A DNA stretch of 39,572 bases from a virus (taxonomy: Duplodnaviria > Heunggongvirae > Uroviricota > Caudoviricetes), in the IMG/VR virus record IMGVR_UViG_2531839178_000021, positions 1 through 39,572 of that record; one strand, 5' to 3'. The notes below the pieces were generated by a model. It was not told the origin of the DNA, did not search any database, and saw only the letters and a list, made by a program, of their open reading frames with translations. The translations under genes were made by a program, and so were the position numbers. Below are positions 2,180-26,056 of this stretch, piece by piece; position 1 is the stretch's first letter, and each line of letters begins with the position of its first letter.

Positions 2180-2239
2180 GGCTGTGTCCCTTAATCATCT
2201 GAGCTATAGTAACTGTCTGTTTACACAACATATTGAACT

Positions 2240-2689
2240 ATGGCTCGCTACGACCTTCCCGATGAGGCATGGACCATCATCAAGCCCCTGTTACCTCCTG
2301 AACCCGCCACACCACGGGCCGGACGCCCATGGGCTGAGCACCGTAAAATCATCAATGGCATGTTCTGGGTGTTATGTTCCGGTGCACCATGGCGCGATTT
2401 ACCCGAACGATATGGGTCATGGAAAACTGTTTATAACCGCTTTAACCGATGGTCAAAGTCAGGCGTGATTAATATTATTTTCAACAGGTTGCTTTCGCTA
2501 CTTGATGCAAACGGCTTTATTGACTGGTCTGCCACCGCGCTGGATGGCAGTAATATCCGGGCGCTGAAATGTGCCGCCGGTGCTCAAAAAAACATCCCGA
2601 TATCGACGGAGATAATGGGCTGGGTCGCTCTCGCGGCGGTTTTGGCACCAAAATCCATCTGGCAACAGACGGAAGTGGCCTCCCGTTAA
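2240..2689 (+). CDS. IS transposase OrfA (DUF4096-like N-terminal part)
   Basis: MARYDLPDEAWTIIKPLLPPEPATPRAGRPWAEHRKIINGMFWVLCSGAPWRDLPERYGSWKTVYNRFNRW; A7 run at 2586-2592 places OrfB in the -1 frame. Confidence 0.8.
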   Translation: MARYDLPDEAWTIIKPLLPPEPATPRAGRPWAEHRKIINGMFWVLCSGAPWRDLPERYGSWKTVYNRFNRWSKSGVINIIFNRLLSLLDANGFIDWSATALDGSNIRALKCAAGAQKNIPISTEIMGWVALAAVLAPKSIWQQTEVASR

Positions 2690-3084
2690 ATATCGTGCTA
2701 AGCCCCGGACAAGCTCATGAAAGCCAGTTCGCGCAACGACTTCTGGACGGGATTGGCGTTCAGCGTCAGAACGGCAGCATGAAACGCCGTGGACATGCGG
2801 TACTGGCTGATAAAGCGTATTCAGGGCGCGCATTGCGCAACGAGCTGAAAAATAACGGTATAAAGGCAGTAATCCCCCGAAAGTCAAATGAGAAAATGGC
2901 ATCGGATGGACGTGCACAGCTTGATCGTGATGCGTACTGCAATCGTAATGTCGTTGAACGGTGCTTTGGGCGGCTGAAAGAATATCGCCGCATCGCCACG
3001 CGTTACGACAAAACGGCGAGAAATTACCTGGCGATGGTGAAACTGGGCTGCATCCGACTCTTTTATCAACGCTTACGTAATTAA
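2569..3084 (+). CDS. IS transposase OrfB (DDE catalytic part), expressed as OrfAB fusion by -1 frameshift
   Basis: ...ADKAYSGRALRNELKNNGIKAVIPRKSNE...NRNVVERCFGRLKEYRRIATRYDKTARNYL, IS4/IS5-superfamily C-terminal signature. Confidence 0.8.
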   Translation: MCRRCSKKHPDIDGDNGLGRSRGGFGTKIHLATDGSGLPLNIVLSPGQAHESQFAQRLLDGIGVQRQNGSMKRRGHAVLADKAYSGRALRNELKNNGIKAVIPRKSNEKMASDGRAQLDRDAYCNRNVVERCFGRLKEYRRIATRYDKTARNYLAMVKLGCIRLFYQRLRN

Positions 3085-3097
3085 GGGACACAGCCTA

Positions 3098-3295
3098 ACA
3101 GTCAGTCAGCGTCGTACTTTATTTATGCACGCCGGATTGACAGAAAAAGAATTTAATCAGCCATACTGGCGAATTAATGAAGAGTCATGTTACTGGCGTG
3201 ATGCTTTATTCCGTGCATTACGTGAATTATTCAGCCTGTTTGAGTATGCACCGACAATTCTGACGTCGGTAAAACCAGAGCAATATCTGCATTAA
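3098..3295 (+). pseudogene. B: Replication gene B, 3' part (65 codons) downstream of IS
   Basis: in-frame continuation TVSQRRTLFMHAGLTEKEFNQPYWRINEESCYWRDALFRALRELFSLFEYAPTILTSVKPEQYLH, stop 3293-3295. Confidence 0.8.
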
Positions 3296-3358
3296 GTAAT
3301 TAACCAGAGTTTTTAACGCACTTAATTGTGCGGGGCTTCTTTTTGCCTGGAGAAAGTC

Positions 3359-3583
3359 ATGCATACAGTTTCTGAAAATCAGTGCGGTAAATACGCATTA
3401 CTGCTGCAACAGGCCAGAACCGAAGCACAGGCCGACGCGGCGACGCGCTTTTCTTCTCATCTTGACGTCATGATTCGCCACATCACAAAGGCGGAGTTAT
3501 CCCGCGTGGAGATAGTCGAGCTGCTCAGTCAGGAGTCGGAAAAATTTCACAATATCGGATTGTCTCGCGGGGAGGTACTTTGA
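3359..3583 (+). CDS. Small early-operon protein (P2 orf80-like)
   Basis: ATG 3359 with GGAGAAAG upstream; [24 protein letters not shown]. Confidence 0.6.
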
Positions 3584-3882
3584 TGTCCTGCTCTCATTCA
3601 GTTGTATTACTGAATAACGCCTTAAAAATCGCCGTTATGAAAAATGGCGATTTGTCTCTTATTCAACTTTGTCTTGATAAAGAAAAACGCGACATCACTG
3701 AATCTGTTATCGCGATTTATCAGAATGAATTAAACCTCCTGTCTGATGTGGTCAATTTACTTGTTAAACGCGCTGTATTCCACAAGCAAATTTCCTCAGT
3801 GGATGAACTGACAAAATTAACGACAGAACTTGCCAGTTATTGCGCTGATGTATACAGGAAACTTAACGATAAAAGGAGCTGA
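3580..3882 (+). CDS. Small early-operon protein (P2 orf81-like)
   Basis: 100-aa ORF, start overlaps previous stop (ATGA). Confidence 0.6.
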
Positions 3883-3884
3883 TA

Positions 3885-4109
3885 ATGCCGGACAACGTAG
3901 ATTTTATTCAGGAACAACAGGCTGAATTACTGGAGCGCCAGATTAACGCGGCAAGGGTAAAACATTGCGGTGCTTCTGCGCTGGTTTGCGAAGAGTGTGA
4001 CGCGCCAATACCTGCTGCCCGTCGTGCGGCTTATCCGTCAGCCACGCGTTGTGTTTCCTGTCAGTCAGTCTTTGAAGCAAAAAATAAACATTACCGGAGA
4101 ACGGCATGA
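3885..4109 (+). CDS. Small C4 zinc-finger protein (TraR/DksA-like; P2 orf82-like)
   Basis: CEECDAPIPAARRAAYPSATRCVSCQ, a Cx2C..Cx2C motif. Confidence 0.65.
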   Translation: MPDNVDFIQEQQAELLERQINAARVKHCGASALVCEECDAPIPAARRAAYPSATRCVSCQSVFEAKNKHYRRTA

Positions 4110-4381
4110 GTATTCGTATTGAAATTGGCGAACGTTATGTCGTTACCAGTGACAGCTTCCAGTTTATTCTCCACGAGAAAAAGAGAGCGGAAAGCGGTAA
4201 AAACGCCGGTCAGGAATGGCTGGCGGTGGTTGGTTATTACCCGAAATTAAGCCAGCTTGTTTCCGGCCTGATGCATCACGATATTCTGACCGGAAGCGCA
4301 AAGTCTTTTGCTGATTTAAACGCGCAGGTTGAGCAACTCAGCAAGCGTTGTTCAGAGGCTTTTGGCTCATATGGCCGTTAA
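4106..4381 (+). CDS. Small early-operon protein (P2 orf83-like)
   Basis: 91-aa ORF MSIRIEIGERYVVTSDSFQFILHEKKRAESGKNAGQEW; translationally coupled. Confidence 0.6.
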   Translation: MSIRIEIGERYVVTSDSFQFILHEKKRAESGKNAGQEWLAVVGYYPKLSQLVSGLMHHDILTGSAKSFADLNAQVEQLSKRCSEAFGSYGR

Positions 4382-6653
4382 AGCCTCCGGGCGTTTTGTC
4401 CCTCCGTCAGCATTTGCTGCAGGCACCGGTAAGGCGTTTACCGGTGCTTATGCATGGAACGCGCCACGCGAGGCTGTCGGGCGCGAAAGACCCTTTACAC
4501 GTGACGAGATGCGTCAGGTGCAAGGTGTTTTATCCACGATTAACCGCCTGCCTTACTTTTTGCGCTCGCTGTTTACTTCACGCTATGACTACATCCGGCG
4601 CAATAAAAGCCCGGTACACGGGTTTTATTTCCTCACATCCACTTTTCAGCGTCGTTTATGGCCGCGCATTGAGCGTGTGAATCAGCGCCATGAAATGAAC
4701 ACCGACGCGTCGTTGCTGTTTCTGGCAGAGCGTGACCATTATGCGCGCCTGCCGGGAATGAATGACAAGGAGCTGAAAAGGTTTGCCGCCCGTATCTCAT
4801 CGCAGCTTTTCATGATGTATGAGGAACTCTGCGATGCCTGGGTGGATGCGCATGGCGAAAAAGAATCGCTGTTTACGGATGAGGCGCAGGCGCATCTGTA
4901 TGGTCATGTTGCTGGCGCTGCACGTGCTTTCAATATTTCCCCGCTTTACTGGAAAAAATACCGTAAAGGATAGATGACCACGAGGCAGGCATATTCTGCC
5001 ATTGCCCGTCTGTTTAACGATGAGTGGTGGACTCATCAGCTTAAAGGCCAGCGTATGCGCTGGCATGAGGCGTTATTGATAGCTGTCGGGGAGGTCAATA
5101 AAGACCGTTCTCCTTATGCCAGTAAACATGCCATTCGTGATGTGCGTGCGCGCCGTCAGGCAAATCTGGAGTTTCTTAAATCGTGTGACCTTGAAAACAG
5201 GGAAACCGGCGAACGCATCGACCTTATCAGTAAGGTGATGGGCAGTATTTCTAATCCTGAAATTCGCCGGATGGAGCTGATGAACACCATTGCCGGTATT
5301 GAGCGTTACGCCGCCGCAGAGGGTGATGTGGAGATGTTTATCACGCTGACCGCGCCGTCAAAGTATCACCCGACACGTCAGGTCGGAAAAGGCGAAAGTA
5401 AAACCGTCCAGCTTAATCACGGCTGGAATGATGAGGCATTTAATCCGAAGGATGCGCAGCGTTATCTCTGCCGTATCTGGAGCCTGATGCGCACGGCATT
5501 CAAGGATAATGATTTACAGGTCTACGGTTTGCGAGTCGTCGAGCCACACCACGACGGAACGCCGCACTGGCATATGATGCTTTTTTGTAATCCACGCCAG
5601 CGTAACCAGATTATCGAAATCATGCGTCGCTACGCGCTCAAAGAGGATGGCGACGAAAGAGGAGCTGCGCGAAACCGTTTTCAGGCAAAACACCTTAACC
5701 GGGGCGGTGCTGCGGGATATATCGCGAAATACATTTCAAAAAACATCGACGGCTATGCACTGGATGGTCAGCTCGATAACGATACCGGCAGGCCGCTGAA
5801 AGACACCGCCGCGGCTGTTACTGCATGGGCGTCAACGTGGCGCATCCCGCAATTTAAAACGGTTGGCCTGCCGACAATGGGGGCTTACCGTGAACTACGC
5901 AAATTGCCTCGCGGCGTCAGTATTGCTGATGAGTTTGACGAACGCGTCGAGGCTGCACGCGCTGCCGCAGACAGTGGTGATTTTGCGTTGTATATCAGCG
6001 CGCAGGGTGGGGCAAATGTTCCGCGCGATTGTCAGACTGTCAGGGTTGCCCGTAGTCCGTCGGATGAAGTTAACGAGTACGAGGAAGAAGTCGAGAGAGT
6101 GGTCGGCATTTACGCGCCGCATCTCGGCGCGCGTCATATTCATATCACCAGAACGACGGACTGGCGCATTGTTCCGAAAGTGCCGGTCGTTGAGCCTTTG
6201 ACTTTAAAAAGCGGCATCGCCGCGCCTCGGAGTCCTGTCAATAACTGTGGAAAGCTCACCGGTGGTGATACTTCGTTACCGGCTCCCACACCTTCTGAAC
6301 ACGCCGCAGCAGTGCTTAATCTGGTTGATGACGGTGTTATCGAATGGAATGACACGGAGGTCGTGAGGGCGCTCAGGGGCGCATTAAAACACGGCCTGAG
6401 AAGACCAAACCGTCAGCAAAGAAACGGAAGCCCGTTAAAACCGCATGAAATAGCGCCATCGGCCAGACTGACCCGGTCGGAAAGAATGCAAATTACCCGT
6501 ATCCGCGTTGACCTTGCTCAGAACGGTATCAGGCCGCAGCGATGGGAGCTTGAGGCGCTGGCGCGTGGTGCGACCGTAAATTACAACGGGAAAAAATTTA
6601 CGTATCCGGTCGCTGATGAGTGGAGTTGGTTTTATTGTTATTCAGAGCAATAA
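4371..6653 (+). pseudogene. A: Replication initiation protein A (rolling-circle nickase), 761 codons, interrupted by an in-frame TAG at 4971-4973
   Basis: ORFs 4329-4973 and 4974-6653 are in the same frame separated only by TAG; combined span from ATG 4371 matches the recalled 761-aa length of P2 gpA; HUH-like region ..PHWHMMLF.. and GYIAKYISK present. Confidence 0.8.
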
Positions 6654-6769
6654 ACATCTGATTTAATTTGTTGCATAATAGTAAAATTGCTGTTTATCTG
6701 CATGTGTTAACTATTGATAATTATGTTGCTAATAATGTGTGCAAATTTATACTGAAAAAGGTGAAAACG

Positions 6770-6922
6770 ATGAATGATATCTTTGTTCTTACAAGGGAAG
6801 AGCTTGAAACACTAGATTATAGTGTTTTTATGCATATACCAGTTACATTTCATGCACATAAAATAAAAAATATCTGGATGGGATTGCTGAATCATCAGAA
6901 AACCCCAAAGAGAAAAAATTAG
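6770..6922 (+). CDS. Cargo locus ORF segment 1 (frame 2), possibly the N-terminus of one larger gene
   Basis: ATG 6770 with AAGGTG 7 nt upstream; low-GC; frame-1 ORF opens at 6862 overlapping this segment across A6 runs (6865-6870, 6913-6918). Confidence 0.45.
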   Translation: MNDIFVLTREELETLDYSVFMHIPVTFHAHKIKNIWMGLLNHQKTPKRKN

Positions 6923-6936
6923 CATCTCTTTTTGGT

Positions 6937-7242
6937 ATGCTATATAGTTTCAATTTGCAAGTTGTTAACAACACTCCATCATTTGAACCCCAAATGATTT
7001 GGGGTAATAAAAGATCAATATTGCCTGAAGATTTTGATGAGCAGGTGAATGACTGTCTTTTATATGTTTCTCAAAAAATAACCAATCCATTTTTGTTATC
7101 AAGAATATATGATGTTGTTTGGTGTAATAATCGGAAAAATAAAGACGTGGCAATTAAAGCAATTGATTCCTATGCTGAAATGCTAAATATAGCAATTGAA
7201 AAGCTAATAATAAAAACGAAAGCATGGATGAAAGTGATTTAA
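6937..7242 (+). CDS. Cargo locus ORF segment 2 (frame 1), hypothetical
   Basis: 101-aa ORF MLYSFNLQVVNNTPSFEPQMIWGNKRS...; overlaps segment 3 by 19 nt across an A5 run (7212-7216). Confidence 0.45.
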   Translation: MLYSFNLQVVNNTPSFEPQMIWGNKRSILPEDFDEQVNDCLLYVSQKITNPFLLSRIYDVVWCNNRKNKDVAIKAIDSYAEMLNIAIEKLIIKTKAWMKVI

Positions 7243-8600
7243 ATTGCTTTATTTTTGCTCGTGATTATATTGCTAGGGCTTTGCACATTAATAAAATGGT
7301 CTACCCTAGAAAATCAGAAGGAAACATGGCGATTAAAAATGCCATTCATTCTCTTTATAGTATTCAAAATGAAAGATTAATCTTTGAAGGTTTCAATAAT
7401 TTGACTTGGTTTATGGTGCGTGATTTTGATGGGTATAATCTGCAGTATGCGGAAAATGCTGAGAAGATGGCTGAGCAGCATAAAGATAAAAAATATTATG
7501 ATGCTGTAAAATCACTTTATATGACAAGTGCAGTTATTTATGAAAAAAATGGTGAGTATGAACGTGCCAAGAGATGTAAACTGGCATCTGCAAATATTAC
7601 TATTAAAGTTGCAACAGATCGACCTGATAATATGGGTAAGATCTCTTGGTTAAGAACAGCTATCTCTGAATTAAGACAGTACGGTGGTGATAGCCAACAG
7701 ATAGAAGATTTAAAGGAACAACTTGCTAATTTGAGAGAAGAAGTAAGGAGTGAATATGTCACTTTAAGCCATTCTATTGATATTAGTGACTTGGTTGCTG
7801 AAAGTGAAAAAAAACTGACGGGGCGTTCTTTGCCCGATATATTCAAAGTTTTAATGCGTGAAACACCGATTGAAAATATTGAAAGCATGAGGGAACAAGT
7901 TTTAAGATTATCAGAAAAAAGTTTATTCTCTAGTTTTGTTGGAACAGAAATTAATGATGAGAGTGGGCGTAAGATATATACAATCCCGCCGTTGGATAAT
8001 AAAAAAGATATGAGTGATGATGTTGTTATTGATCAATATCTAAGAAATTTCGAGATTACTCATAAGATTTTTGTAAACGGTGTCTTTGAACCTGCTCGCT
8101 ATGTACTTTCTCAAGAACATGGCTTGACGTTGTCAACATTCGTTAAATTGGTTACAACTAGTCCAATTGTCAAGCCGGAGTTTAGGGAGATTTTTAATTT
8201 GGGCTTTTACAAATTATGGCAGGGAGATTACATCAGTGCAGCTTATCTTTTAATACCACAAATGGAGGGTATGGTTCGTTATTATTATGAGCTTAGTGGA
8301 AAGGATGCTACTAGATATTTGGATAAGGGATTAGAGGAGTCAACAAGTATTTCTCAGCTTCTAGATAAATGCAGAGATGATTTGGAAAGTATCTTTTCTA
8401 AAAATCTTGTTTTGACTATCGATGTTCTTTTTAACAGAAAGAGTGGGGCAACCTTAAGACATAAATTAGCACATGGTAATTTATATACTAATGCTTGTTA
8501 CGATGAAACAACGACATATGCATGCATCCTGATTTTCTTTCTGTGTGCTTATCCTCTCCTACCATATTTTGATACTGTTTTTGAACAGGGCTCTGTTTGA
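7224..8600 (+). CDS. Cargo protein, 458 aa, unknown function with C-terminal HEPN-like R-x4-H motif; candidate abortive-infection/defence effector
   Basis: low-GC ORF; motif RHKLAHG encoded at 8457-8477; coiled-coil-like EDLKEQLANLREEVRSEY; no Walker A, so not an Old-type ATPase. Confidence 0.6.
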   Translation: MDESDLNCFIFARDYIARALHINKMVYPRKSEGNMAIKNAIHSLYSIQNERLIFEGFNNLTWFMVRDFDGYNLQYAENAEKMAEQHKDKKYYDAVKSLYMTSAVIYEKNGEYERAKRCKLASANITIKVATDRPDNMGKISWLRTAISELRQYGGDSQQIEDLKEQLANLREEVRSEYVTLSHSIDISDLVAESEKKLTGRSLPDIFKVLMRETPIENIESMREQVLRLSEKSLFSSFVGTEINDESGRKIYTIPPLDNKKDMSDDVVIDQYLRNFEITHKIFVNGVFEPARYVLSQEHGLTLSTFVKLVTTSPIVKPEFREIFNLGFYKLWQGDYISAAYLLIPQMEGMVRYYYELSGKDATRYLDKGLEESTSISQLLDKCRDDLESIFSKNLVLTIDVLFNRKSGATLRHKLAHGNLYTNACYDETTTYACILIFFLCAYPLLPYFDTVFEQGSV

Positions 8601-8751
8601 TAACGTATACGTTGAGGCATAAAACCTATGCATACTTAGCTGCATCAATTTGCACGAGGTATTTCAGTATGCATTTTCTGCGTAATAGTAGGGATTGCTT
8701 GGTTTGGTAGTTGTAATTCAACTGCATTCAAACCGACCCATGAAGCGGGCG

Positions 8752-8770
8752 GGCGAGGCGGGGAAAGCAC
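8752..8770. other. cos: cos site (19-nt cohesive end sequence of P2-type phages)
   Basis: GGCGAGGCGGGGAAAGCAC matches the recalled P2 cohesive end; located between the A-side cargo and Q as expected. Confidence 0.7.
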
Positions 8771-8912
8771 TGCGCGCTGGCGGTGGTGCTGATTTTATTT
8801 TTTCAGCGTCTCAGCGCGTCGTGACGGCGCTTAGTCTGCCCGTTGGGGTGTTGGTGTGTCTGCGGGCTGTTTTGTGCTGTGGTGAGCGTGTGAGGGCGTG
8901 ATGACGGGATGT

Positions 8913-8934
8913 AAAAAAGCCGCCCGCAGGCGGC
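8913..8934 (-). terminator. Rho-independent terminator downstream of Q
   Basis: minus strand GCCGCC-tgcg-GGCGGC followed by TTTTTT. Confidence 0.6.
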
Positions 8935-8939
8935 GATGT

Positions 8940-9929
8940 TCAGCCGTTGTCAGTGTCCAGTGAGTAGTTTTTAAAGCGGATGACCTCCTGACCGAGCCAG
9001 CCGTTTATCTCGCGGATCCTGTCCTGTAACGGGATAAGCTCATTGCGGACAAAGACCTTTGCCACTTTCTCAATATCACCCAGCGACCCGACGTTCTCCG
9101 GCTTGCCGCCCATCAACTGAAAGGGGATGCGGTGCGCGTCAAGCAGGTCAGCGGCGCTGGCTTTTTTGATATTAAAAAAATCGTCCTTCGTTGCCACTTC
9201 ACTGAGCGGGATAATTTTAATGCCGTCGGCTTTTCCCTGTGGGGCATAGAGAAACAGGTTTTTAAAGTTGTTGCGGCCTTTCGACTTCACCATGTTTTCG
9301 CGAAGCGTTTCGATATCGTTGCGATCCTGCACGGCATCAGTGACGTACATGATATATCCGGCATGAGCGCCGTTTTCGTAATACTTGCGGCGGAACAGCG
9401 TGGCCGACTCATTCAGCCAGGCAGAATTAAGGGCGCTGAGATATTCCGGCAGACCGTACAGCTCCTGATTAATATCCGGCTCCAGCAGGTGAAACACGGA
9501 TCCGGGCGCGAAGGCTGTCGGCTCGTTAAAGGACGGCACCCACCAGTAAACATCCTCCTCCACGCCACGGCGGGTATATTTTGCCGGTGAGGTTTCCAGT
9601 CTGATGACCTTACCGGTGGTGCTGTAACGCTTTTCCAGAAACGCATTACCGAACACCAGAAAATCCAGCACAAAGCGGCTGAAATCCTGCTGGGACAGCC
9701 ACGGGTGCGGGATAAACGTTGAAGCCAGAATATTACGTTTGACGTAAATCGGTGAGCTGTGATGCACGGCAGCACGCAGGCTTTTTGCCAGACCGGTAAA
9801 GCTGATTGGTGGCTCATACCATCTGCTGTTACTGATGCATTCGACGTAATCCAGAATGTCACGGTGGTCGAGTACCGGCACCGGCTCACCAAAGGTGAAT
9901 ACCTCCATTTTCGGGGCGCTGGCGGTCAT
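8940..9929 (-). CDS. Q: Portal protein Q; N-terminus frame-broken (probable true start ATG at 9973)
   Basis: 329-aa ORF MTASAPKMEVFTFGEPVPVLDHRDILDYVECISNSRWYEPP; upstream ATG at 9973-9971 with GGAG 8 nt upstream, out of frame by one base across a 5-nt homopolymer (plus-strand T-run 9960-9964). Confidence 0.85.
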   Translation of the reverse strand: MTASAPKMEVFTFGEPVPVLDHRDILDYVECISNSRWYEPPISFTGLAKSLRAAVHHSSPIYVKRNILASTFIPHPWLSQQDFSRFVLDFLVFGNAFLEKRYSTTGKVIRLETSPAKYTRRGVEEDVYWWVPSFNEPTAFAPGSVFHLLEPDINQELYGLPEYLSALNSAWLNESATLFRRKYYENGAHAGYIMYVTDAVQDRNDIETLRENMVKSKGRNNFKNLFLYAPQGKADGIKIIPLSEVATKDDFFNIKKASAADLLDAHRIPFQLMGGKPENVGSLGDIEKVAKVFVRNELIPLQDRIREINGWLGQEVIRFKNYSLDTDNG

Positions 9930-10034
9930 TGTTTTTGCCGCAGGTTGCGGTGTTTTCCCTTTTTCTTGCTCATCAGTAAAACTCCAGAATGGTGGATGTC
10001 AGCGGAGTGCTGATACCGGCGGTGAGTGGCTCAT

Positions 10035-11744
10035 TTAACAGGGCGTGCATGGTCGCCCAGGCGAGGTCGGCGTGGCTGGCTTCCTCGCTGCGGCTGGCCT
10101 CATAGGTGGCCTGCGTCCGCTGCTGGTCATGGTCTTGCGGATAGCCATGAACGAGCTGGTGATGTCGGTGGCGCTGACGTCATATTCCAGACAGCCACGG
10201 CGGATAACGTCTTTTGCCTTGAGCACCATTGCGGTTTTCATTTCCGGCGTGTAGCGGATGTCGCGCGCGGCGGGATAGAACGAGCGCACAAGCTGGAACA
10301 CGCCGACACCGAGGCCGGTGGCATCAATACCGATGTATTCGACGTTGTATTTTTCGGTGAGTTTGCGGATGGATTCCGTCTGGGTGGCAAAGTCCATACC
10401 TTTCCACTGGTGACGCTCAAGTATTCTGAATTTGCCACCGGCCACCACCGGCGGTGCCAGTACCACGCATCCGGCGCTGTCGCCACGGTGTGACGGGTCG
10501 TAACCAATCCATACCGGTCGGGAGCCGAACGGATTGGCGGCAAACGGCGCATAGTCTTCCCATTCTTCCAGCGTGTCGACCATGCAGCGTTGCAGCTCCT
10601 CGAACGGGAATACCGATGCCTTGTCGTCAACAAATTCACACATGAACAGGTTTTTAAAATCGTCGGCGCTGTTTTCGCGTTTAAGCTGCTCAATGTCGAA
10701 CAGCGTGCAGCCACCTTTCAGGGCGTCCTCAATGGTGACAATCTGCCGCCACTGGCCGTCCGCACAGAGAAGCCCACCGGCAAGGGCGTTATGACTGATG
10801 TCGATTTCCACGCGTTCGGCGGCGCTGGCGCGTCCCCGGTTAAACAGTTCACCCGACCAGAACGGGTAGGCGTCGTGCGCCAGCGTGGACGGGGTGGAGA
10901 AATAGGTCGAGCGCAGGTGACTCTGTGAGGCCATACCTGATGCCATCTTACGCAGTACCTGAAAATTCGGGATCCAGAACATCTCGTCGACGTACAGGTC
11001 GCCGTTATGGCTCTGCGCGGTGTTGGAGTTGGTGCCGAGAAAAATCAGTTTTGCGCCGTTATTGCCCAGGACAATCGGGTCACCGGTCAGGTCAACGTCA
11101 ACCAGCCGGGCAAAGGCGATGATGTATTCGCGGAACACATACGCCTGTGTTTTACTGGCCGACAGAAAAATCTGGTTATGACCGGTTTTCAGGGCGCGCA
11201 GCAGCGCCTCGCGGGAAAAATAAAACGTCGCGCCAATCTGGCGGGATTTCAGGATATCGCGGATGCGGTGCTCAAGCCCGGCGCGATACCAGTGCAACTG
11301 ATATTCGAAAGACTGCTCAAAGAAAATCTGCTCCAGCTTTTCGATGGCTTCGTCACTGAAAAAATTCTTTTTCGGTTTGCGACGCCCGCCTTTGTTGCGG
11401 TTAGCGACGTTCGGATTAAGGTCTGCCTCGTTGCCGGTCTGACTGTAGCGGTTGACCCGCGCCAGTCGTTCAATCTGGCGTCCCAGCAGGTCAATTTCCT
11501 TGAAGTCACCGCCGGTTTTCTGCGGTTTGATAATGAGCTGGGTCAGCCGCGCTTCCAGACTCATTTCGACACGGCTGATGGGGGCAACGCTGTCCCAGCC
11601 GTCGCGCTGTTTCCAGCTCTGCACCGTCGGGCGTTTCATCTGCAACATGGCGGCAATCTGCGGCACGGAAAACCCCTGCCAGTACAGCAGCGCCGCCTGA
11701 CGACGCGGGTCGTGCAAAAGAGTGGTGTCTGTGGTGATGGTCAT
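10035..11744 (-). CDS. P: Terminase large (ATPase) subunit P; 3' end frame-broken
   Basis: MTITTDTTLLHDPRRQAALLYWQGFSVPQIAAM...; C-terminal ~30 codons are Pro/Arg-rich, while the adjacent frame gives ..YEASRSEEASHADLAWATMHALLNEPLTAGISTPLTSTILEFY ending in TGA overlapping the upstream Q ATG (TGATG). Confidence 0.85.
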   Translation of the reverse strand: MTITTDTTLLHDPRRQAALLYWQGFSVPQIAAMLQMKRPTVQSWKQRDGWDSVAPISRVEMSLEARLTQLIIKPQKTGGDFKEIDLLGRQIERLARVNRYSQTGNEADLNPNVANRNKGGRRKPKKNFFSDEAIEKLEQIFFEQSFEYQLHWYRAGLEHRIRDILKSRQIGATFYFSREALLRALKTGHNQIFLSASKTQAYVFREYIIAFARLVDVDLTGDPIVLGNNGAKLIFLGTNSNTAQSHNGDLYVDEMFWIPNFQVLRKMASGMASQSHLRSTYFSTPSTLAHDAYPFWSGELFNRGRASAAERVEIDISHNALAGGLLCADGQWRQIVTIEDALKGGCTLFDIEQLKRENSADDFKNLFMCEFVDDKASVFPFEELQRCMVDTLEEWEDYAPFAANPFGSRPVWIGYDPSHRGDSAGCVVLAPPVVAGGKFRILERHQWKGMDFATQTESIRKLTEKYNVEYIGIDATGLGVGVFQLVRSFYPAARDIRYTPEMKTAMVLKAKDVIRRGCLEYDVSATDITSSFMAIRKTMTSSGRRPPMRPAAARKPATPTSPGRPCTPC

Positions 11745-11917
11745 GAATACCTCGCCGTGATGAATACACGGCAAGGCTACTGAGTCGCGCCCCGCGATTC
11801 GCTAAGGTGCTGTTGTGTCAGTGATAAGCCATCCGGGACTGATGGCGGAGGATGCGCATCGTCGGGAAACTGATGCCGACATGTGACTCCTCTAATCACT
11901 ATTCAGGACTCCTGACA

Positions 11918-12772
11918 ATGGCAAAAAAAGTCTCAAAATTCTTTCGTATCGGCGTTGAGGGTGACACCTGTGACGGGCGTGTCATCAGTGCGCAGGATAT
12001 TCAGGAAATGGCCGAAACCTTTGACCCGCGTGTCTATGGTTGCCGCATTAACCTGGAACATCTGCGCGGCATCCTGCCTGACGGTATTTTTAAACGTTAT
12101 GGCGATGTGGTCGAACTGAAGGCCGAAAAGATTGATGACGATTCGGCGCTGAAAGGCAAATGGGCGCTGTTTGCGAAAATCACCCCGACCGATGACCTTA
12201 TCGCGATGAACAAGGCCGCGCAGAAGGTCTACACCTCAATGGAAATTCAGCCGAACTTTGCCAACACCGGCAAATGTTATCTGGTGGGGCTGGCCGTCAC
12301 CGATGACCCGGCAAGCCTCGGCACGGAATATCTGGAGTTCTGCCGCACGGCAAAACACAACCCTCTGAACCGCTTCAAATTAAGCCCTGAGAACCTTATT
12401 TCAGTGGCAACGCCCGTTGAGCTGGAATTTGAAGACCTGCCTGAAACCGTGTTCACCGCCCTGACCGAAAAGGTGAAGTCCATTTTTGGCCGCAAACAGG
12501 CCAGCGATGACGCCCGCCTGAATGACGTGCATGAAGCGGTGACCGCTGTTGCTGAACATGTGCAGGAAAAACTGAGCGCCACTGAGCAGCGCCTCGCTGA
12601 GATGGAAACCGCCTTTTCCGCACTTAAGCAGGATGTGACTGACAGGGCGGATGAAACCAGCCAGGCATTCACCCGCCTGAAAAACAGTCTCGACAGCACC
12701 GAAAGTCTGACCCAGCAGCGCCGCAGCAAAGCCACCGGCGGTGGCGGTGACGCCCTGATGACGAACTGCTGA
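11918..12772 (+). CDS. O: Capsid scaffolding protein O
   Basis: MAKKVSKFFRIGVEGDTCDGRVISAQDIQEMAETFDPRVYGCRINLEHLRG; divergent from P. Confidence 0.85.
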   Translation: MAKKVSKFFRIGVEGDTCDGRVISAQDIQEMAETFDPRVYGCRINLEHLRGILPDGIFKRYGDVVELKAEKIDDDSALKGKWALFAKITPTDDLIAMNKAAQKVYTSMEIQPNFANTGKCYLVGLAVTDDPASLGTEYLEFCRTAKHNPLNRFKLSPENLISVATPVELEFEDLPETVFTALTEKVKSIFGRKQASDDARLNDVHEAVTAVAEHVQEKLSATEQRLAEMETAFSALKQDVTDRADETSQAFTRLKNSLDSTESLTQQRRSKATGGGGDALMTNC

Positions 12773-12845
12773 CCGGCGTCAGTCAGTCCGGGAAAACCTT
12801 CACGATTAACCCTTAATTTCAGGAAAAACTATGCGCCAGGAAACC

Positions 12846-14271
12846 TAATGCCGATCAGTTAAGGATCAGTTGACCGATCCAGTGGCTGTGTAAGAATCCG
12901 GAAACGCTCACTTGTTTCCGGATTTTTTTATGCACATTGGACAGGCTCTTGATCTGGTATCCCGTTACGATTCTCTGCGTAACCCACTGACTTCTCTGGG
13001 GGATTACCTCGACCCCGAACTCATCTCTCGTTGCCTTGCCGAATCAGGTACTGTAACGCTACGCAAGCGCCGTCTTCCCCTCGAAATGATGGTCTGGTGT
13101 ATTGTTGGCATGGCGCTTGAGCGTAAAGAACCTCTTCACCAGATTGTGAATCGCCTGGACATCATGCTGCCGGGCAATCGCCCCTTCGTTGCCCCCAGTG
13201 CCGTTATTCAGGCCCGCCAGCGCCTGGGAAGTGAGGCTGTCCGCCGCGTGTTCACGAAAACAGCGCAGCTCTGGCATAACGCCACGCCGCATCCGCACTG
13301 GTGCGGCCTGACCCTGCTGGCCATCGATGGTGTGTTCTGGCGCACACCGGATACACCAGAGAACGATGCAGCCTTCCCCCGCCAGACACATGCCGGGAAC
13401 CCGGCGCTCTACCCGCAGGTCAAAATGGTCTGCCAGATGGAACTGACCAGCCATCTGCTGACGGCTGCAGCCTTCGGCACGATGAAGAACAGCGAAAATG
13501 AGCTTGCTGAGCAACTTATAGAACAAACCGGCGATAACACTCTGACGTTAATGGATAAAGGTTATTACTCACTGGGACTGTTAAATGCCTGGAGCCTGGC
13601 GGGAGAACACCGCCACTGGATGATACCTCTCAGAAAGGGAGCGCAATATGAAGAGCTCAGAAAACTGGGTAAAGGCGATCATCTGGTGAAGCTGAAAACC
13701 AGCCCGCAGGCACGAAAAAAGTGGCCGGGACTGGGAAATGAAGTGACAGCCTGCCTGCTGACCGTGACGCGCAAAGGAAAAGTCTGCCATCTGCTGACGT
13801 CGATGACGGACGCCATGCGCTTCCCCGGAGGAGAAATGGCGGATCTGTACAGTCATCGCTGGGAAATCGAACTGGGATACAGGGAGATAAAACAGACGAT
13901 GCAACTGAGCAGGCTGACGCTGAGAAGTAAAAAGCCGGAGCTTGTGGAGCAAGAGCTGTGGGGTGTCTTACTGGCTTATAATCTGGTGAGATATCAGATG
14001 ATTAAAATGGCGGAACATCTGAAAGGTTACTGGCCGAATCAACTGAGTTTCTCAGAATCATGCGGAATGGTGATGAGAATGCTGATGACATTGCAGGGCG
14101 CTTCACCGGGACGTATACCGGAGCTGATGCGCGATCTTGCAAGTATGGGACAACTTGTGAAATTACCGACGAGAAGGGGAAGGGCCTTCCCGAGAGTGGT
14201 AAAGGAGAGGCCCTGGAAATACCCCACAGCCCCGAAAAAGAGCCAGTCAGTTGCTTAACTGACTGGCATTA
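12846..14271 (+). mobile_element. IS4, 1426 bp, with 13-bp target-site duplication gcgccaggaaacc
   Basis: ends taatgccgatcagttaag ... cttaactgactggcatta; identical 13-mers at 12833-12845 and 14272-14284. Confidence 0.9.
12930..14258 (+). CDS. insG: IS4 transposase (442 aa)
   Basis: [71 protein letters not shown]. Confidence 0.9.
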
Positions 14272-15346
14272 GCGCCAGGAAACCCGCTTTAAATTTAATG
14301 CCTACCTGTCCCGTGTTGCCGAACTGAACGGCATCGACGCCGGTGATGTGTCGAAAAAATTCACCGTTGAACCGTCGGTCACCCAGACCCTGATGAACAC
14401 CATGCAGGAGTCCTCTGACTTTCTGACCCGCATCAACATTGTGCCGGTCAGCGAAATGAAAGGGGAAAAAATTGGCATCGGTGTCACCGGCTCCATCGCC
14501 AGCACCACCGACACCGCCGGTGGGACTGAGCGTCAGCCGAAGGACTTCTCGAAGCTGGCGTCTAACAAGTACGAATGCGACCAGATTAACTTCGATTTTT
14601 ATATCCGCTACAAAACGCTTGACCTGTGGGCGCGTTATCAGGATTTCCAGCTCCGTGTCCGTAACGCCATTATCAAACGCCAGTCCCTTGATTTCATCAT
14701 GGCCGGTTTTAACGGCGTGAAGCGTGCCGAAACTTCTGACCGCAGCAGCAATCCGATGTTGCAGGATGTGGCGGTCGGCTGGTTGCAGAAATACCGCAAT
14801 GAAGCCCCGGCGCGCGTGATGAGCAAGGTCACTGACGAGGAAGGGCGCACCACCTCTGAGGTTATCCGCGTGGGTAAGGGCGGCGATTATGCCAGCCTTG
14901 ATGCACTGGTGATGGATGCGACCAACAACCTGATTGAACCGTGGTATCAGGAAGACCCTGACCTTGTGGTGATTGTGGGACGTCAGCTACTGGCGGACAA
15001 GTATTTCCCCATCGTCAACAAAGAGCAGGACAACAGCGAAATGCTGGCCGCTGATGTCATCATCAGCCAGAAACGCATCGGTAACCTGCCGGCGGTACGC
15101 GTCCCGTACTTCCCGGCGGATGCGATGCTCATCACGAAGCTGGAAAACCTGTCCATCTACTACATGGATGACAGCCATCGCCGCGTGATTGTGGAAAACC
15201 CGAAACTCGACCGCGTGGAGAACTACGAGTCAATGAACATTGATTACGTGGTGGAAGACTATGCCGCCGGTTGTCTGGTGGAGAAAATTAAGGTCGGTGA
15301 TTTCTCCACACCGGCTAAAGCGACCGCAGAGCCGGGAGCGTAACCG

Positions 15347-15640
15347 ATGACGAGTCCCGCACAGCGCCACATGATGCGGGTCTCGGCAGCGATGACCGCG
15401 CAGCGGGAAGCCGCCCCGCTGCGACATGCAACTGTCTATGAGCAGATGCTGGTTAAGCTCGCCGTAGACCAGCGCACACTGAAAGCAATTTATTCAAAAG
15501 AGCTGAAGGCCGCGAAAAAACGCGAACTGCTGCCGTTCTGGTTGCCGTGGGTGAATGGCGTGCTGCCGCACGGCACCGCCGTCGAACTGCCCGACGTTCA
15601 GACCGCGCCCGTGGCTGAAACTGTCAATCTGTGGGAGTAA
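15347..15640 (+). other. 97-codon ORF, probably an in-frame fusion remnant of terminase small subunit M (5' part) and tail protein X (3' end) left by deletion of most of M, all of L and most of X
   Basis: only ~300 bp separate N stop (15343) from holin Y start (15644), where P2 order N-M-L-X-Y needs ~1.4 kb; the M and X assignments of the two halves are from memory. Confidence 0.5.
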
Positions 15641-15643
15641 CGC

Positions 15644-15925
15644 ATGACAGCAGAAGAAAAAAGCGTTCTGTCGCTTTTCATGATTGGGGTGCTGATTGTT
15701 GTCGGCAAGGTGCTTGCCGGTGGTGAACCCATCACCCCGCGTCTGTTTATCGGGCGCATGTTGCTCGGTGGTTTTGTCTCGATGGTTGCCGGTGTTGTTC
15801 TGGTGCAGTTTCCTGACCTGTCACTGCCTGCGGTGTGCGGCATTGGCTCCATGCTGGGTATCGCCGGTTATCAGGTGATTGAGATTGCCATTCAGCGCCG
15901 CTTTAAGGGCAGGGGGAAACCGTAA
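15644..15925 (+). CDS. Y: Holin Y
   Basis: 93-aa ORF with hydrophobic helices MTAEEKSVLSLFMIGVLIVVGKVLAGG...; precedes endolysin. Confidence 0.85.
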   Translation: MTAEEKSVLSLFMIGVLIVVGKVLAGGEPITPRLFIGRMLLGGFVSMVAGVVLVQFPDLSLPAVCGIGSMLGIAGYQVIEIAIQRRFKGRGKP

Positions 15926-16422
15926 TGCCGGTTATTAACACGCATCAGAATATCGCCGCCTTTCTCGACATGCTGGCCGTGTCCGAAGGGACGGCGAATC
16001 ATCCGCTGACGAAAAAACGGGGCTATGACGTGATAGTCACCGGACTGGACGGAAAGCCGGAAATTTTCACCGACTACAGTGACCACCCGTTCGCGCATGG
16101 CCGACCGGCGAAGGTGTTTAACCGTCGCGGTGAAAAATCCACGGCCTCCGGTCGCTATCAGCAGCTTTACCTGTTCTGGCCGCACTACCGCAAACAGCTT
16201 GCCCTGCCGGATTTCAGTCCGTTGTCACAGGACAGACTTGCCATTCAGTTGATCCGTGAACGCGGTGCACTGGATGACATCCGGGCGGGACGCATTGAGC
16301 GCGCCATTTCACGCTGTCGCAATATCTGGGCGTCCCTGCCGGGTGCCGGTTACGGTCAGCGTGAGCATTCACTGGAAAAACTGGTCACCGTCTGGCGTAC
16401 CGCTGGCGGCGTACCTGCTTAA
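15925..16422 (+). CDS. K: Endolysin K (lysozyme-like)
   Basis: MPVINTHQNIAAFLDMLAVSEGTANHPLTKKRGYDVIVTGLDGKPEIFTDYSDHPF. Confidence 0.85.
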   Translation: MPVINTHQNIAAFLDMLAVSEGTANHPLTKKRGYDVIVTGLDGKPEIFTDYSDHPFAHGRPAKVFNRRGEKSTASGRYQQLYLFWPHYRKQLALPDFSPLSQDRLAIQLIRERGALDDIRAGRIERAISRCRNIWASLPGAGYGQREHSLEKLVTVWRTAGGVPA

Positions 16423-16436
16423 ACGGAGTAAACACC

Positions 16437-16862
16437 ATGAAGAAATTATCCCTTTCACTGATGCTGAACGTGTCGCTGGCGCTGATGCTGGCACTGTCCC
16501 TGATTTACCCGCAGAGCGTGGCCGTCAATTTTGTCGCCGCCTGGGCGATTCTGGCGACGGTTATCTGTGTGGTTGCCGGTGGTATCGGCGTGTATGCCAC
16601 TGAGTATGTACTGGAACTCTACGGGCGGGAGCTGCCGCCGGAATCGCTGGCCGTGAAGATTGTCACGTCGCTGTTTTTGCAGCCGGTGCCGTGGCGCAGA
16701 CGGGCGGCGGCTCTGGTTGTGATGGTGGCGACATTTATCTCGCTGGTCGCTGCCGGGTGGATTTTTACCGCGCTGATTTATCTCGTAGCGTCGCTGTTTT
16801 TCCGGCTGATACGCACGGCCTGCCGTCAGCGTCTTGAGGGGCGGGAACCATGTCAAGGCTGA
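16437..16862 (+). CDS. lysA: Lysis regulatory membrane protein LysA
   Basis: 141-aa multi-TM ORF following K. Confidence 0.75.
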   Translation: MKKLSLSLMLNVSLALMLALSLIYPQSVAVNFVAAWAILATVICVVAGGIGVYATEYVLELYGRELPPESLAVKIVTSLFLQPVPWRRRAAALVVMVATFISLVAAGWIFTALIYLVASLFFRLIRTACRQRLEGREPCQG

Positions 16863-17275
16863 TGATTGTACTGATTGTGTTGTTATCGCTGGCGGTGGCG
16901 GGTCTGTTTCTGGTGAAACACAAAAATGCCAGCCTGCGCGCTTCGCTGGACAGGGCGAACAGCGTCGCCAGCGGGCAGCAGACGACCATCACCATGCTGA
17001 AAAATCAGCTTCATGTTGCGCTCACCAGGGCAGAAAAAAACGAGCTGGCGCAGGTGGCACTGCGTCAGGAACTGGAAAACGCCGCGAAGCGTGAAGCACA
17101 GCGCGAGAAAACCATCACGAGGTTACTCAATGAAAACGAAGATTTTCGCCGCTGGTACGGTGCTGACCTGCCTGATGCTGTGCGCCGGTTGCACCAGCGT
17201 CCGGCCTGCACCGACGCCAGTGATTGTCGCCAACGCCTGCCCGAAAGTGAGTCTTTGCCCGATGCCGGGCAGTGA
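16850..17275 (+). CDS. lysB: LysB (Rz-like inner-membrane spanin)
   Basis: N-terminal TM MSRLMIVLIVLLSLAVAGLFLV followed by coiled-coil region. Confidence 0.75.
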   Translation: MSRLMIVLIVLLSLAVAGLFLVKHKNASLRASLDRANSVASGQQTTITMLKNQLHVALTRAEKNELAQVALRQELENAAKREAQREKTITRLLNENEDFRRWYGADLPDAVRRLHQRPACTDASDCRQRLPESESLPDAGQ

Positions 17276-17420
17276 CCCGCAGACGAACGGCGATTTAAGT
17301 GCTGATATCAGGCAGCTTGAGAACGCGCTGGCACGCTGTGCCAGCCAGGTAAAAATGATTAAACACTGTCAGGACGAAAACGATGCTCAAACCCGACAGC
17401 CTGTGCAGGGCGTTGACTGA
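17130..17420 (+). CDS. lysC: LysC (Rz1-like outer-membrane lipoprotein spanin), overlapping lysB in another frame
   Basis: MKTKIFAAGTVLTCLMLCAGC lipoprotein signal with lipobox; Pro-rich mature part. Confidence 0.7.
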   Translation: MKTKIFAAGTVLTCLMLCAGCTSVRPAPTPVIVANACPKVSLCPMPGSDPQTNGDLSADIRQLENALARCASQVKMIKHCQDENDAQTRQPVQGVD

Positions 17421-17850
17421 TGCCGTCACGGTGCTGAAAACTAACCCCGATATGCTGCGGATATTCGTGGATAACGGGAGTATTGCCTCCACACTGGCGA
17501 CGTCGCTGTCGTTCGAAAAGCGTTACACGCTCAATGTGATTGTGACCGACTTTACCGGTGATTTTGACCTGCTCATCGTGCCGGTGCTGGCGTGGCTGCG
17601 GGAAAATCAGCCCGACATCATGACCACCGACGAAGGCCAGAAAAAGGGCTTCACGTTTTATGCAGACATCAACAATGACAGCAGCTTTGATATAAGCATC
17701 AGCCTGATGCTGACCGAGCGCACGCTGGTCAGTGAGGTGGACGGCGCGCTGCATGTGAAGAATATCCCTGAACCTCCGCCGCCGGAGCCGGTTACCCGCC
17801 CGGTGGAGCTTTATATCAATGGCGAACTGGTGAGCAAGTGGGATGAATGA
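17383..17850 (+). CDS. R: Tail completion protein R
   Basis: 155-aa ORF MLKPDSLCRALTDAVTVLKTNPDMLRIFVDNGSIAS. Confidence 0.8.
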   Translation: MLKPDSLCRALTDAVTVLKTNPDMLRIFVDNGSIASTLATSLSFEKRYTLNVIVTDFTGDFDLLIVPVLAWLRENQPDIMTTDEGQKKGFTFYADINNDSSFDISISLMLTERTLVSEVDGALHVKNIPEPPPPEPVTRPVELYINGELVSKWDE

Positions 17851-18294
17851 GTTTAAGCGTTTTGAAGACCGGCTGGCCGGACTGACTGAATCGCTGTCAC
17901 CGTCAGGGCGTCGGCGACTGAGCGCCGAACTGGCGAAACGTCTGCGTCAGAGTCAGCAGCGTCGGGTGATGGCACAGAAAGCCCCGGACGGCACACCCTA
18001 CGCGCCACGTCAGCAGCAGAGCGCCAGAAAAAGACCGGTCGCGTTAAGCGAAAAATGTTTGCGAAACTTATCACCAGTCGTTTTTTGCATATCCGCGCCA
18101 GCCCGGAACAGGCATCAATGGAGTTTTACGGCGGGAAGTCACCGAAAATCGCCAGTGTGCATCAGTTCGGTCTGTCGGAAGAAAACCGGAAAGACGGTAA
18201 GAAAATTGATTATCCGGCGCGTCCTCTGCTCGGCTTTACCGGTGAGGATGTGCAGATGATTGAAGAGATTATCCTGGCTCACCTGAATCGTTAG
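17843..18294 (+). pseudogene. S: Tail completion protein S, frame-broken at an A5 run (18028-18032)
   Basis: ORF 17843-18259 (MNEFKRFEDRLAGLTESLSPSGRRRLSAELAKRLRQSQQ...SARK) shifts to ORF 18055-18294 (MFAKLITSRFLHIRASPEQ...ILAHLNR) by a 1-nt deletion-type break. Confidence 0.75.
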
Positions 18295-18497
18295 CTTTAA
18301 TCATCTGAGAATATAAGATAGAAATCAATTGATTAGCATAATTTATTTTGAATTTTCATGTTAATAAATAAAAGGCCAGTTATTGGCCTTTTATCATTAC
18401 TTTCCATTTTTTAATGAATTGATTAACGATGCTATTTGCTCAATGCCATCAAATGTAGATGGTATCTTATCATCGGATAGCATGATGTTTGAAAATA

Positions 18498-18815
18498 CTA
18501 CGTCTTCGAATTTTGAAAGCGCTTCCGGATTGTTTTTCTTATCTCTGAGGAATAGTCGCTATAACTCTGAATGAACTGACAAAGGCTCTTTTTGAGTTCT
18601 ATTTGCATAATCTGAGTTCGTAACGATATATGATTTAGCAGTACAACTCTAAAGTAATACATGAAAATCAATGTAACTGATGCAAAAGGTAGTGCTGACA
18701 TAAAATATGTGGCAGCATTTGTCGTTTCGAGAGCTGGTAATTTATGCATTCCATAGTATATCAGCGGGGAGGGAATGATTATAGCCAAGATGATAAGAAT
18801 TATTCTTGATAGCAT
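18498..18815 (-). CDS. Small membrane protein (two predicted TM helices), cargo, unknown function
   Basis: 105-aa low-GC ORF MLSRIILIILAIIIPSPLIYYGM...ATYFMSALPFASVTLIFMYYFRVVLL; downstream of and co-oriented with the 18902-19468 gene. Confidence 0.55.
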   Translation of the reverse strand: MLSRIILIILAIIIPSPLIYYGMHKLPALETTNAATYFMSALPFASVTLIFMYYFRVVLLNHISLRTQIMQIELKKSLCQFIQSYSDYSSEIRKTIRKRFQNSKT

Positions 18816-18901
18816 GATTGCACTTTCTTTTTTTTGCCAAGTGAATTAAAGCCTTCAAACAATCCAACAAAATTAAATGCGACCTCATACCCTTTTAATG
18901 A

Positions 18902-19468
18902 CTATTTGATTGACTCTATTTTGGTATGTTGCTCCTTTAAGAAGGAGTCGCACTTTTCGAAAAATTGACGCCCTTCGTTTAAACTATCAATGTATTTTTT
19001 ATATGTGTCAACATTGCTGGAGCTTAAAACTTCTTTAACCATTGCTAATGGCAGTTCTCTAAGAGAAAAGTCTATCTGTGCTCTGCTCCGCTCATCGAAT
19101 TCATTATAGTTATACAGAGCAAAATCCTTGATGGTTCTTAGTGGTGAAAAGTGAGACTCTATTTCCGGAGAGAGAATGCTTGGTTCAATGATAAATCTAA
19201 AAAAGCAAGTGAATATAAGGTTGATGCTGTTGTTATCTTCTCCCTTTTCTCTTAAGAAACTTTTAAAGGTGTCGCCAATCATAGCAATGTTGTGCTGGGA
19301 TTTTTTGTCCCAATCTTCAGGGTTTTCGGAAATGAAGTTTATTGCTTGAGCAATTATTTTGTTTCTGTTTGATTCAAAGTTTGTGCCGGGAGTCAGCGTG
19401 TTCAAAAAGACCAGATAATCTTTGAACAATTCTTTCATTGTTTCTGACGAGAAAAAGTAAGTACTCAT
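18902..19468 (-). CDS. Hypothetical cargo protein (~188 aa), unknown function
   Basis: low-GC ORF on the strand opposite to the tail genes, inserted between S and V; start taken at ATG 19468 (MSTYFFSSETMKELF); the longer ORF to 19564 uses GTG and overlaps the V start. Confidence 0.5.
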   Translation of the reverse strand: MSTYFFSSETMKELFKDYLVFLNTLTPGTNFESNRNKIIAQAINFISENPEDWDKKSQHNIAMIGDTFKSFLREKGEDNNSINLIFTCFFRFIIEPSILSPEIESHFSPLRTIKDFALYNYNEFDERSRAQIDFSLRELPLAMVKEVLSSSNVDTYKKYIDSLNEGRQFFEKCDSFLKEQHTKIESIK

Positions 19469-19554
19469 AATGGATTTTGTTGTCCCTTGTTGTTCTGTGC
19501 ACCAGAAATCGTGGTGTGATTTACTTCGAGATTGTACAGAATCATTATTATCGA

Positions 19555-22860: not shown

Positions 22861-22931
22861 TTCAGAAAGATCAGAACGGTGCGGATATCCCTGATAAAGA
22901 ACGCTTCCTGAGTAACATTAGGCTGTGTCCC

Positions 22932-25259: not shown

Positions 25260-25298
25260 GTCCGCTCTGTGCCAGGAGCAGACATTGCCAACGTTATG
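25260..25298 (+). repeat. ~39-bp direct repeat, copy A (partner at 27932-27970)
   Basis: gtccgctctgtgccaggagcagacattgccaacgttatga versus gttcgctttgtgccaggagcggacgttgccagcattgag, ~85 percent identity. Confidence 0.7.
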
Positions 25299-25707: not shown

Positions 25708-25769
25708 GTTTCTGCGCAAGTTAGCTCTGTTATTATAATCCTTACTCACACTGTAAGGACATAGTTCAA

Positions 25770-26033: not shown

Positions 26034-26056
26034 AGATAATCGACCAGATCCTTGAA

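Follow-up and report, generated by a model that had tools for sequence, protein, structure and literature searches.

Two one-base deletions of probably different origin at the terminase-portal gene junction of a P2-like Shigella boydii prophage

The junction between the terminase gene P and the portal gene Q of a P2-like prophage in Shigella boydii is disrupted by two one-base deletions, and our comparison with related assemblies suggests that these deletions differ in origin. With a probability of about 80%, we consider the break in P to be a real mutation and the break in Q to be likely a sequencing error, in a prophage that was already dead. According to this reading, one base was lost at codon 545 of P and the loss was inherited across a clade of S. 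boydii strains. The resulting frameshift swaps the last 46 residues of the terminase for a nonsense tail of 25 residues, and translation of P stops short of the Q start, abolishing stop-start coupling between the two genes. The contraction of an A6 run to A5 in Q would be a homopolymer undercall of one draft assembly. The feature as a whole is ordinary prophage decay combined with draft-assembly noise, both of which are already known; it represents neither recoding nor a new feature.

The window, by which we mean the whole stretch of 39,572 nucleotides that was analysed, is 100% identical over its entire length to AKNA01000058.1, a draft contig of GCA_000268145.1 (Shigella boydii 965-58). It is a P2-like (Peduovirus) prophage within this draft genome, with yegR and yegS as neighbours at one end and a peptidase-U32 gene, which is probably yegQ, at the other. 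The late genes are syntenic with those of P2, L-413C and fiAA91-ss in collinear blocks of 96-98% nucleotide identity, between which insertions and one deletion intervene. The P-Q part of the P2 late operon is the closest known system, again with 96-98% nucleotide identity to fiAA91-ss, P2 and L-413C, and the gene order is that of P2, namely cos, Q, P and then the divergent O-N-M-L.

The P-Q junction and its two missing bases

All genes of the junction are located on the minus strand, where the packaging genes Q and P together occupy positions 8940-11744, and cosL maps to about 8752-8770. As read, gene P (10035..11744, ATG at 11744, TAA at 10035-10037) encodes 569 residues and matches EIQ29160.1 of Shigella boydii 965-58 exactly. 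The Pfam domains Terminase_5 (an N-terminal HTH of gpP type), Terminase_6N (the ATPase) and Terminase_6C (the RNase-H-like nuclease) identify its product as a terminase, the large subunit. Only the first 544 residues are native. They are followed by an out-of-frame tail of 25 residues, RPPMRPAAARKPATPTSPGRPCTPC (10038..10112, minus strand), which stands in place of native residues 545-590 and is rich in proline, arginine, alanine and threonine (8 Pro, 3 Arg, 4 Ala and 3 Thr among the final 24 residues). The native 3' end of P is stranded outside the frame of the P ORF at 9973..10109 (minus strand), where it codes for ...ATYEASRSEEASHADLAWATMHALLNEPLTAGISTPLTSTILEFY and ends with a TGA at 9975-9973; the native C-terminus in this neighbouring frame reads ...SATYEASRSEEASHADLAWATMHALLNEPLTAGISTPLTSTILEFY.

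The last base of this TGA is also the first base of the native Q start codon (9973-9971), the two forming the sequence TGATG (9971..9975, minus strand). Within the coding region of P, a GGAG Shine-Dalgarno motif for Q (9982..9985, minus strand) precedes the Q ATG by 8 nt, and none of the ten sequences in the alignment departs from it. P2, L-413C and fiAA91-ss share both the TGATG overlap and the GGAG. In P2 the corresponding ATG opens Q as MSKKKGKTPQPAAKTMTASAPK..., and with one base added to 8940-9973, a native Q of the window would reach 344 residues. What the window holds at this ATG is an ORF of 15 codons, MSKKKGKHRNLRQKQ* (9926..9973, minus strand, TGA at 9928-9926), which is a product of the second deletion and whose stop codon overlaps the next in-frame Met codon of Q (ATG 9929-9927) as ATGA. 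From that Met codon, gene Q as read starts with MTASAPK (8940..9929, minus strand) and encodes 329 residues, corresponding to EIQ29159.1 of Shigella boydii 965-58, which is on record there on one contig. The Phage_portal domain (PF04860) assigned to it in the gene table, which is also that of the reference gpQ, and its position directly downstream of P, on the same strand and beside cos, identify it as the portal gene. The TGATG and the GGAG are present (9971-9985), yet neither native frame runs intact through the junction, so that P and Q are not coupled here; the junction in the window is a disrupted copy and not a functional member of the P2-like P-Q packaging pairs.

Alignment of the P and Q termini with those of P2 (NC_070904), L-413C (NC_004745) and fiAA91-ss (NC_022750) revealed exactly two one-base deletions in a stretch that is otherwise 97-98% identical. 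At the first site (10110..10111, minus strand, P codon 545) the coding strand reads GCAGGCC instead of GCAGCGCC; the missing base belongs to a GCGC context and no homopolymer is involved. At the second site (9960..9964, minus strand, Q codons 3-5) AAGAAAAAAGGG has become AAGAAAAAGGG, which shortens A6 to A5 on the coding strand. Restoration of both bases results in a P of 590 residues, 99.3% identical to gpP of fiAA91-ss, and a Q of 344 residues, 97.4% identical to Q of fiAA91-ss, with the TGATG overlap joining the two. The original prediction, made from the letters of the window, was confirmed in all these respects: it had claimed that P ends in a Pro/Arg-rich tail, that the neighbouring frame provides a plausible C-terminus whose TGA overlaps an ATG preceded by GGAG, that the frame opened by this ATG is one base short of joining the annotated Q ORF, and that two corrections would couple P and Q. 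It also named what would speak against it, namely reference proteins that share the tail of P or the late start of Q. Instead, reference P ends with ...TSTILEFY and lacks a Pro/Arg tail, and reference Q begins with MSKKKGK rather than MTASAPK. That the two breaks differ in origin was not visible from the letters of the window.

The wider comparison agrees with the three reference phages, in all of which the one-base P/Q overlap is annotated. In ten intact, unrelated prophages with the same gpO, P has 590 residues and overlaps Q by one base without exception; Q has 344 residues in nine of them and 342 in the remaining one. About 1,600 E. coli records match the region at 97-99% identity, and among the matches listed all best records span 503 bases for our query of 501 bases. 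Both deletions together were found in no matching E. coli complete-genome record, which is explained by the source being a Shigella draft: an exact-protein look-up traced the frameshifted P and the truncated Q to contig AKNA01000058.1.

Origin of the two deletions

The deletion in P is widespread among close relatives. An exact-protein look-up places the 569-residue P on 9-10 contigs, and the deletion at codon 545 is present in five independent Logan assemblies (ERR200314, SRR8186674, ERR6005806, SRR8186692 and SRR11791543) as well as in the Logan assembly of SRR059778. It occurs in none of the 1,543 matching E. coli complete-genome records, and its pattern is absent from the GTDB species-representative genomes. 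Since five independent read sets carry the deletion and none of the 1,543 E. coli records does, the comparison indicates that the break in P is a real mutation that was fixed in, and inherited by, a lineage of S. boydii. When an indel recurs in independently sequenced strains and the element concerned carries further inactivating lesions, the pattern is that of an inherited frameshift pseudogene. A gene call for a 569-residue P also exists in a more distant sub-lineage, in the finished chromosome CP027027.1 and in UYIS01000021.1, where it is known from gene-call length alone. The loci of this sub-lineage that were retrieved by protein look-up ended inside P, and look-ups with O, the A fragments and the M'-X' fusion led either to unrelated intact prophages or to the same close sub-lineage.

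The distribution of the deletion in Q is different. The A5 state and the 329-residue Q are confined to the NCBI assembly of 965-58 and the Logan assembly of SRR059778. In each of the five sister assemblies the run is A6 and Q is intact with 344 residues, a protein that is named as S. boydii portal under several NCBI accessions. Over 6 kb the SRR059778 contig shows 100% identity to the window, so that this run probably represents the same strain as 965-58, and its reads are presumably pyrosequencing data.

We counted the private differences of the window against the closest sister assemblies within two segments, 3070-12873 and 14245-20137, which add up to 15.7 kb. The count gave no substitutions and six private differences, every one of them a one-base contraction of a run of at least six. 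On the plus strand of the window these are T7 to T6 at 6865, T6 to T5 at 7212, T6 to T5 at 9960 (the Q site, A6 to A5 in the coding sense), A6 to A5 at 18027, T6 to T5 at 18532 and T9 to T8 at 18827. A seventh contraction, A8 to A7 at 31087, is seen in comparison with more distant assemblies. The two sister sequences that cover the 15.7 kb hold only 35 runs of at least six bases, and the six differences thus sit in about 1.5% of the sequence. At 18532 the run length called in the NCBI assembly is not that of the Logan SRR059778 assembly, which implies that homopolymer lengths in the 965-58 data depend on the assembler. If six contractions per 15.7 kb are extrapolated to the whole genome, well over a thousand frameshifts are obtained. 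More than 1,000 frameshifts are implausible for a viable isolate, which counts against reading the contractions as real mutations.

Overall, the indel in Q lies in a homopolymer, is private and is accompanied by private changes in run length without substitutions, as is characteristic of a homopolymer artefact; it is not found in the independently sequenced sister strains, as an inherited pseudogene would require. Judged by these sequence features, the break in Q is probably a homopolymer undercall in the 965-58 draft assembly, and the actual strain very probably has an intact 344-residue Q frame like its sisters. Private differences that consist exclusively of contractions of runs of at least six, one of them assembler-dependent, resemble the homopolymer undercalls of pyrosequencing-era or long-read-only drafts. 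The frameshift in P, on the other hand, does not fit this picture. Against an undercall speaks that A5 is reproduced in the Logan assembly of SRR059778; the deletion in Q would be real if this run were independent or not prone to homopolymer errors.

It is also conceivable, though unlikely, that both frameshifts are real and that 965-58 has additionally lost an A from the A6 run of Q by replication slippage, as part of neutral decay. The agreement of the NCBI and Logan assemblies on A5 would be in line with this, as would the lack of selection on a prophage with so many other lesions. Moreover, the same run is contracted from A6 to A5 in 2-4 of 1,472 E. coli complete-genome records; the gene concerned is a pseudogene in one annotation and a portal of 329 residues in another. 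Genuine slippage at the Q run is therefore possible, unless these few genomes contain errors as well. However, real slippage in Q would have to be reconciled with a set of six private changes in 15.7 kb that are all homopolymer contractions, with zero substitutions beside them, and with a genome-wide number of frameshifts that is hard to accept. In addition, one of the six contractions was not reproduced by the second assembler, and A6 is retained in five of five sister assemblies.

An even less probable possibility is that the A6 run of Q is a genuine slippage hotspot in P2-like prophages, A5 being real in 965-58 and in the few E. coli genomes, and that the contraction is tolerated or reversible rather than a knockout. 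If A5 were real, reinitiation at the ATGA overlap (9929-9926) could, speculatively, give rise to a portal without its first 15 residues. Since gpQ undergoes proteolytic cleavage in maturation (PMC7552001), the portal may be able to do without these residues.

The notion that both frameshifts stem from errors of sequencing or assembly and that the true P-Q junction is intact and coupled is effectively refuted: homopolymer miscalls do occur elsewhere in the assembly, but the deletion in P lies outside any homopolymer, in a GCGC context, and recurs unchanged in five further samples that were sequenced independently, with two more assemblies having the 569-residue P call. We likewise see practically no room for programmed recoding, by ribosomal frameshifting or transcriptional slippage, that would still yield full-length P and Q, since the ORFs of relatives are uninterrupted at both sites and have no need of it; A-rich runs like that of the Q site can support slippage, but a run of five is short for slippage during transcription, recoding at the P site would demand a -1 shift on C GCA GGC, which is no slippery heptamer of the form X XXY YYZ, and the P allele occurs solely in a prophage that many further lesions inactivate. 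A programmed frameshift or slippage site was accordingly rejected as a candidate.

Consequences for the terminase and for coupling

In P2, gpQ forms the portal dodecamer, and gpM and gpP constitute the terminase (PMC7552001). The break in P removes the last 46 residues (545-590) and with them the end of the nuclease domain. The Terminase_6C match covers profile positions 1-132 of 155 in P of the window compared to positions 1-154 in gpP of fiAA91-ss, which means that about 22 final positions of the RNase-H-like nuclease domain are lost. A sequence search of the PDB with the intact gpP returned no homologue on which the catalytic residues could be placed. Among the lost residues, S-H-A-D560-L-A-W appears to resemble the conserved H-A-D motif in which terminase nucleases have their third catalytic acidic residue. 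In large terminases, moreover, the extreme C-terminus commonly docks on the portal. Given the presumed loss of both the catalytic aspartate and portal docking, the domain boundaries lead us to expect that the 569-residue P would be packaging-dead, that is, unable to cut cos or to package DNA.

In stop-start coupling, ribosomes that end P at the TGA can start Q directly at the overlapping ATG, with the Shine-Dalgarno sequence just upstream. Translation of P in the window ends 61 nt before the Q ATG, so that this coupling is lost; the Shine-Dalgarno sequence is kept.

State of the prophage and implications for annotation

Compared to P2, the window has the codon-545 deletion in P and, as assembled, the contraction in codons 3-5 of Q, and elsewhere the prophage is broken by IS insertions, by a deletion, by a stop codon and by a further frameshift. 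An IS4-family element of 1,426 bp with a 13-bp flanking duplication (12846-14271) is inserted at the first codons of N. A deletion of ~1.25 kb (junction at about 15560-15575) has taken out the whole of L, together with the greater part of M and the beginning of X. Gene A (4371-6653) is split into parts of 200 and 559 residues, which we attribute to a stop codon since the split involves no indel. A 0.9-kb IS interrupts B (2178-3098), and a second copy is present in H (22918-23837). FII carries a frameshift at 32735 (G5 to G4), and because DNA comparison detects it in every assembly of the lineage, we regard it as real. An IS630-like element lies within the prophage at about 30155-30940, and further IS630-like elements are located outside int on the source contig.

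Most of these lesions have a history beyond 965-58: the IS4 element at N, the M-L-X deletion, the split of A and the FII frameshift are also found in sister assemblies, the IS in B being an exception. For the 137-residue ORF of FII there is no exact-protein record, and a look-up with the 79-residue S fragment showed that its occurrence is not restricted to the lineage. The prophage is already defective through lesions common to the lineage, irrespective of the breaks in P and Q. Neither of the two breaks alters the phenotype of an element that several further lesions, common to the lineage, have already killed. In this respect it is a typical example of the degraded, IS-ridden prophages of Shigella, with clade-wide lesions comprising the P and FII frameshifts, the stop in A, the IS4 element in N and the M-L-X deletion; the IS630-like elements that flank it and sit inside it also belong to this kind of decay, and nothing about it is distinctive.

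The feature hence carries little biological weight and amounts to a fixed pseudogenising frameshift and a probable homopolymer error 150 bp apart. It does have implications for annotation. P in the S. boydii lineage should carry a pseudogene flag, and the 329-residue portal EIQ29159.1 of 965-58 is probably an artefactual truncation. As the breaks in P and Q would differ in origin, resequencing of 9950-10140 can be expected to correct Q alone and to leave P as it is. Private homopolymer contractions also affect five or more further sites of the window, within genes or between them, and one of these contractions splits a candidate anti-phage defence gene.

Homopolymer runs in the draft assembly

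Further one-base homopolymer contractions lie at 6865, 7212, 18027, 18532, 18827 and 31087, and all six are private to the window assembly when it is compared with sister strains of the same Shigella boydii lineage that are otherwise identical to it. The contraction at 18027 truncates gene S, which encodes 150 aa in the sisters. The Logan assembly of SRR059778, a read set presumed to represent the same strain, does not show the one at 18532. Taken together, the private character of these contractions and the failure of 18532 to recur suggest a systematic undercalling of homopolymers in GCA_000268145.1, the draft from which the window derives.

The A6 to A5 contraction at the start of the portal gene Q (9960-9964) is also found in two complete E. 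coli genomes as deposited, NZ_CP148746.1 and NZ_CP116925.1. For the A5-state Q of this pair, PGAP gives one partial pseudogene and one 329-aa portal (WP_000127198.1). P is likewise flagged as frameshifted in CP116925.1.

Lesions shared across the lineage

The tail-tube gene FII is frameshifted at 32735 by a G5 to G4 change. In contrast to the Q contraction, this change occurs in every lineage assembly examined and is therefore a real inherited lesion. Replication gene A (4371-6653, plus strand) is split into parts of 200 and 559 aa, as it is in the sister assemblies, and the lack of any indel relative to fiAA91-ss (NC_022750), the closest reference phage, places an in-frame stop at about 4971-4973.

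The first codons of capsid gene N hold an IS4-family element of 1,426 bp (12846-14271) with a 13-bp duplication on its flanks; the transposase that it encodes is 448 aa long and has the domains Nterm_IS4 and DDE_Tnp_1. This insertion is common to the lineage, including CP027027.1, a finished chromosome of a more distant sub-lineage. About 1.25 kb is missing from the M-L-X region compared with fiAA91-ss (positions 5388-6633 of that phage). The deletion spans a 16-bp repeat, and its junction at about 15560-15575 of the window joins the 5' part of M, the small terminase gene, to X, with the loss of L. Within the assembly collection, 53 index blocks list the 97-aa M-X fusion product, so the defective prophage is widespread in the clade.

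Cargo genes and mobile elements

The stretch between gene A and cos is a variable region in P2-like phages. Here it contains an AT-rich cargo gene (33% GC, about 6770-8600, plus strand), which in the sister assembly ERR200314 encodes one unbroken 610-aa DUF7380 protein with a match to PDC-S39 (E = 1.5e-84), which PADLOC lists as a candidate defence family. The private contraction at 7212, T6 to T5, breaks this gene into plus-strand ORFs of 101 and 458 aa (6937-7242 and 7224-8600); in other sisters the split falls elsewhere, in the T8/T7 run of position 7807.

Genes S and V are separated by an AT-rich insert of 1.3 kb (18295-19590), which takes the place of about 108 bp in fiAA91-ss. Its minus-strand ORF, 178 aa in the window versus 188 aa in the sisters, has no Pfam or PADLOC match and may be another cargo gene.

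Between G and FI lies a 5.8-kb variable region (25282-31118). It comprises a 407-aa DDE transposase (26571-27794, minus strand), an AT-rich 261-aa ORF without a family match (28117-28902), and an IS630-like element with a frameshift (about 30155-30940). The region also includes a minus-strand ORF of 250 aa (29064-29816), which at its N-terminus matches PDC-M68A of PADLOC and endonuclease effectors of the CBASS type (E = 6.6e-24).

Two copies of an IS of roughly 0.92 kb with a 171-aa DDE_Tnp_1 ORF are located at 2178-3098 and 22918-23837. Replication gene B is interrupted by one copy, and tail-fibre gene H contains the other; their sole difference is a T7/T6 run length.
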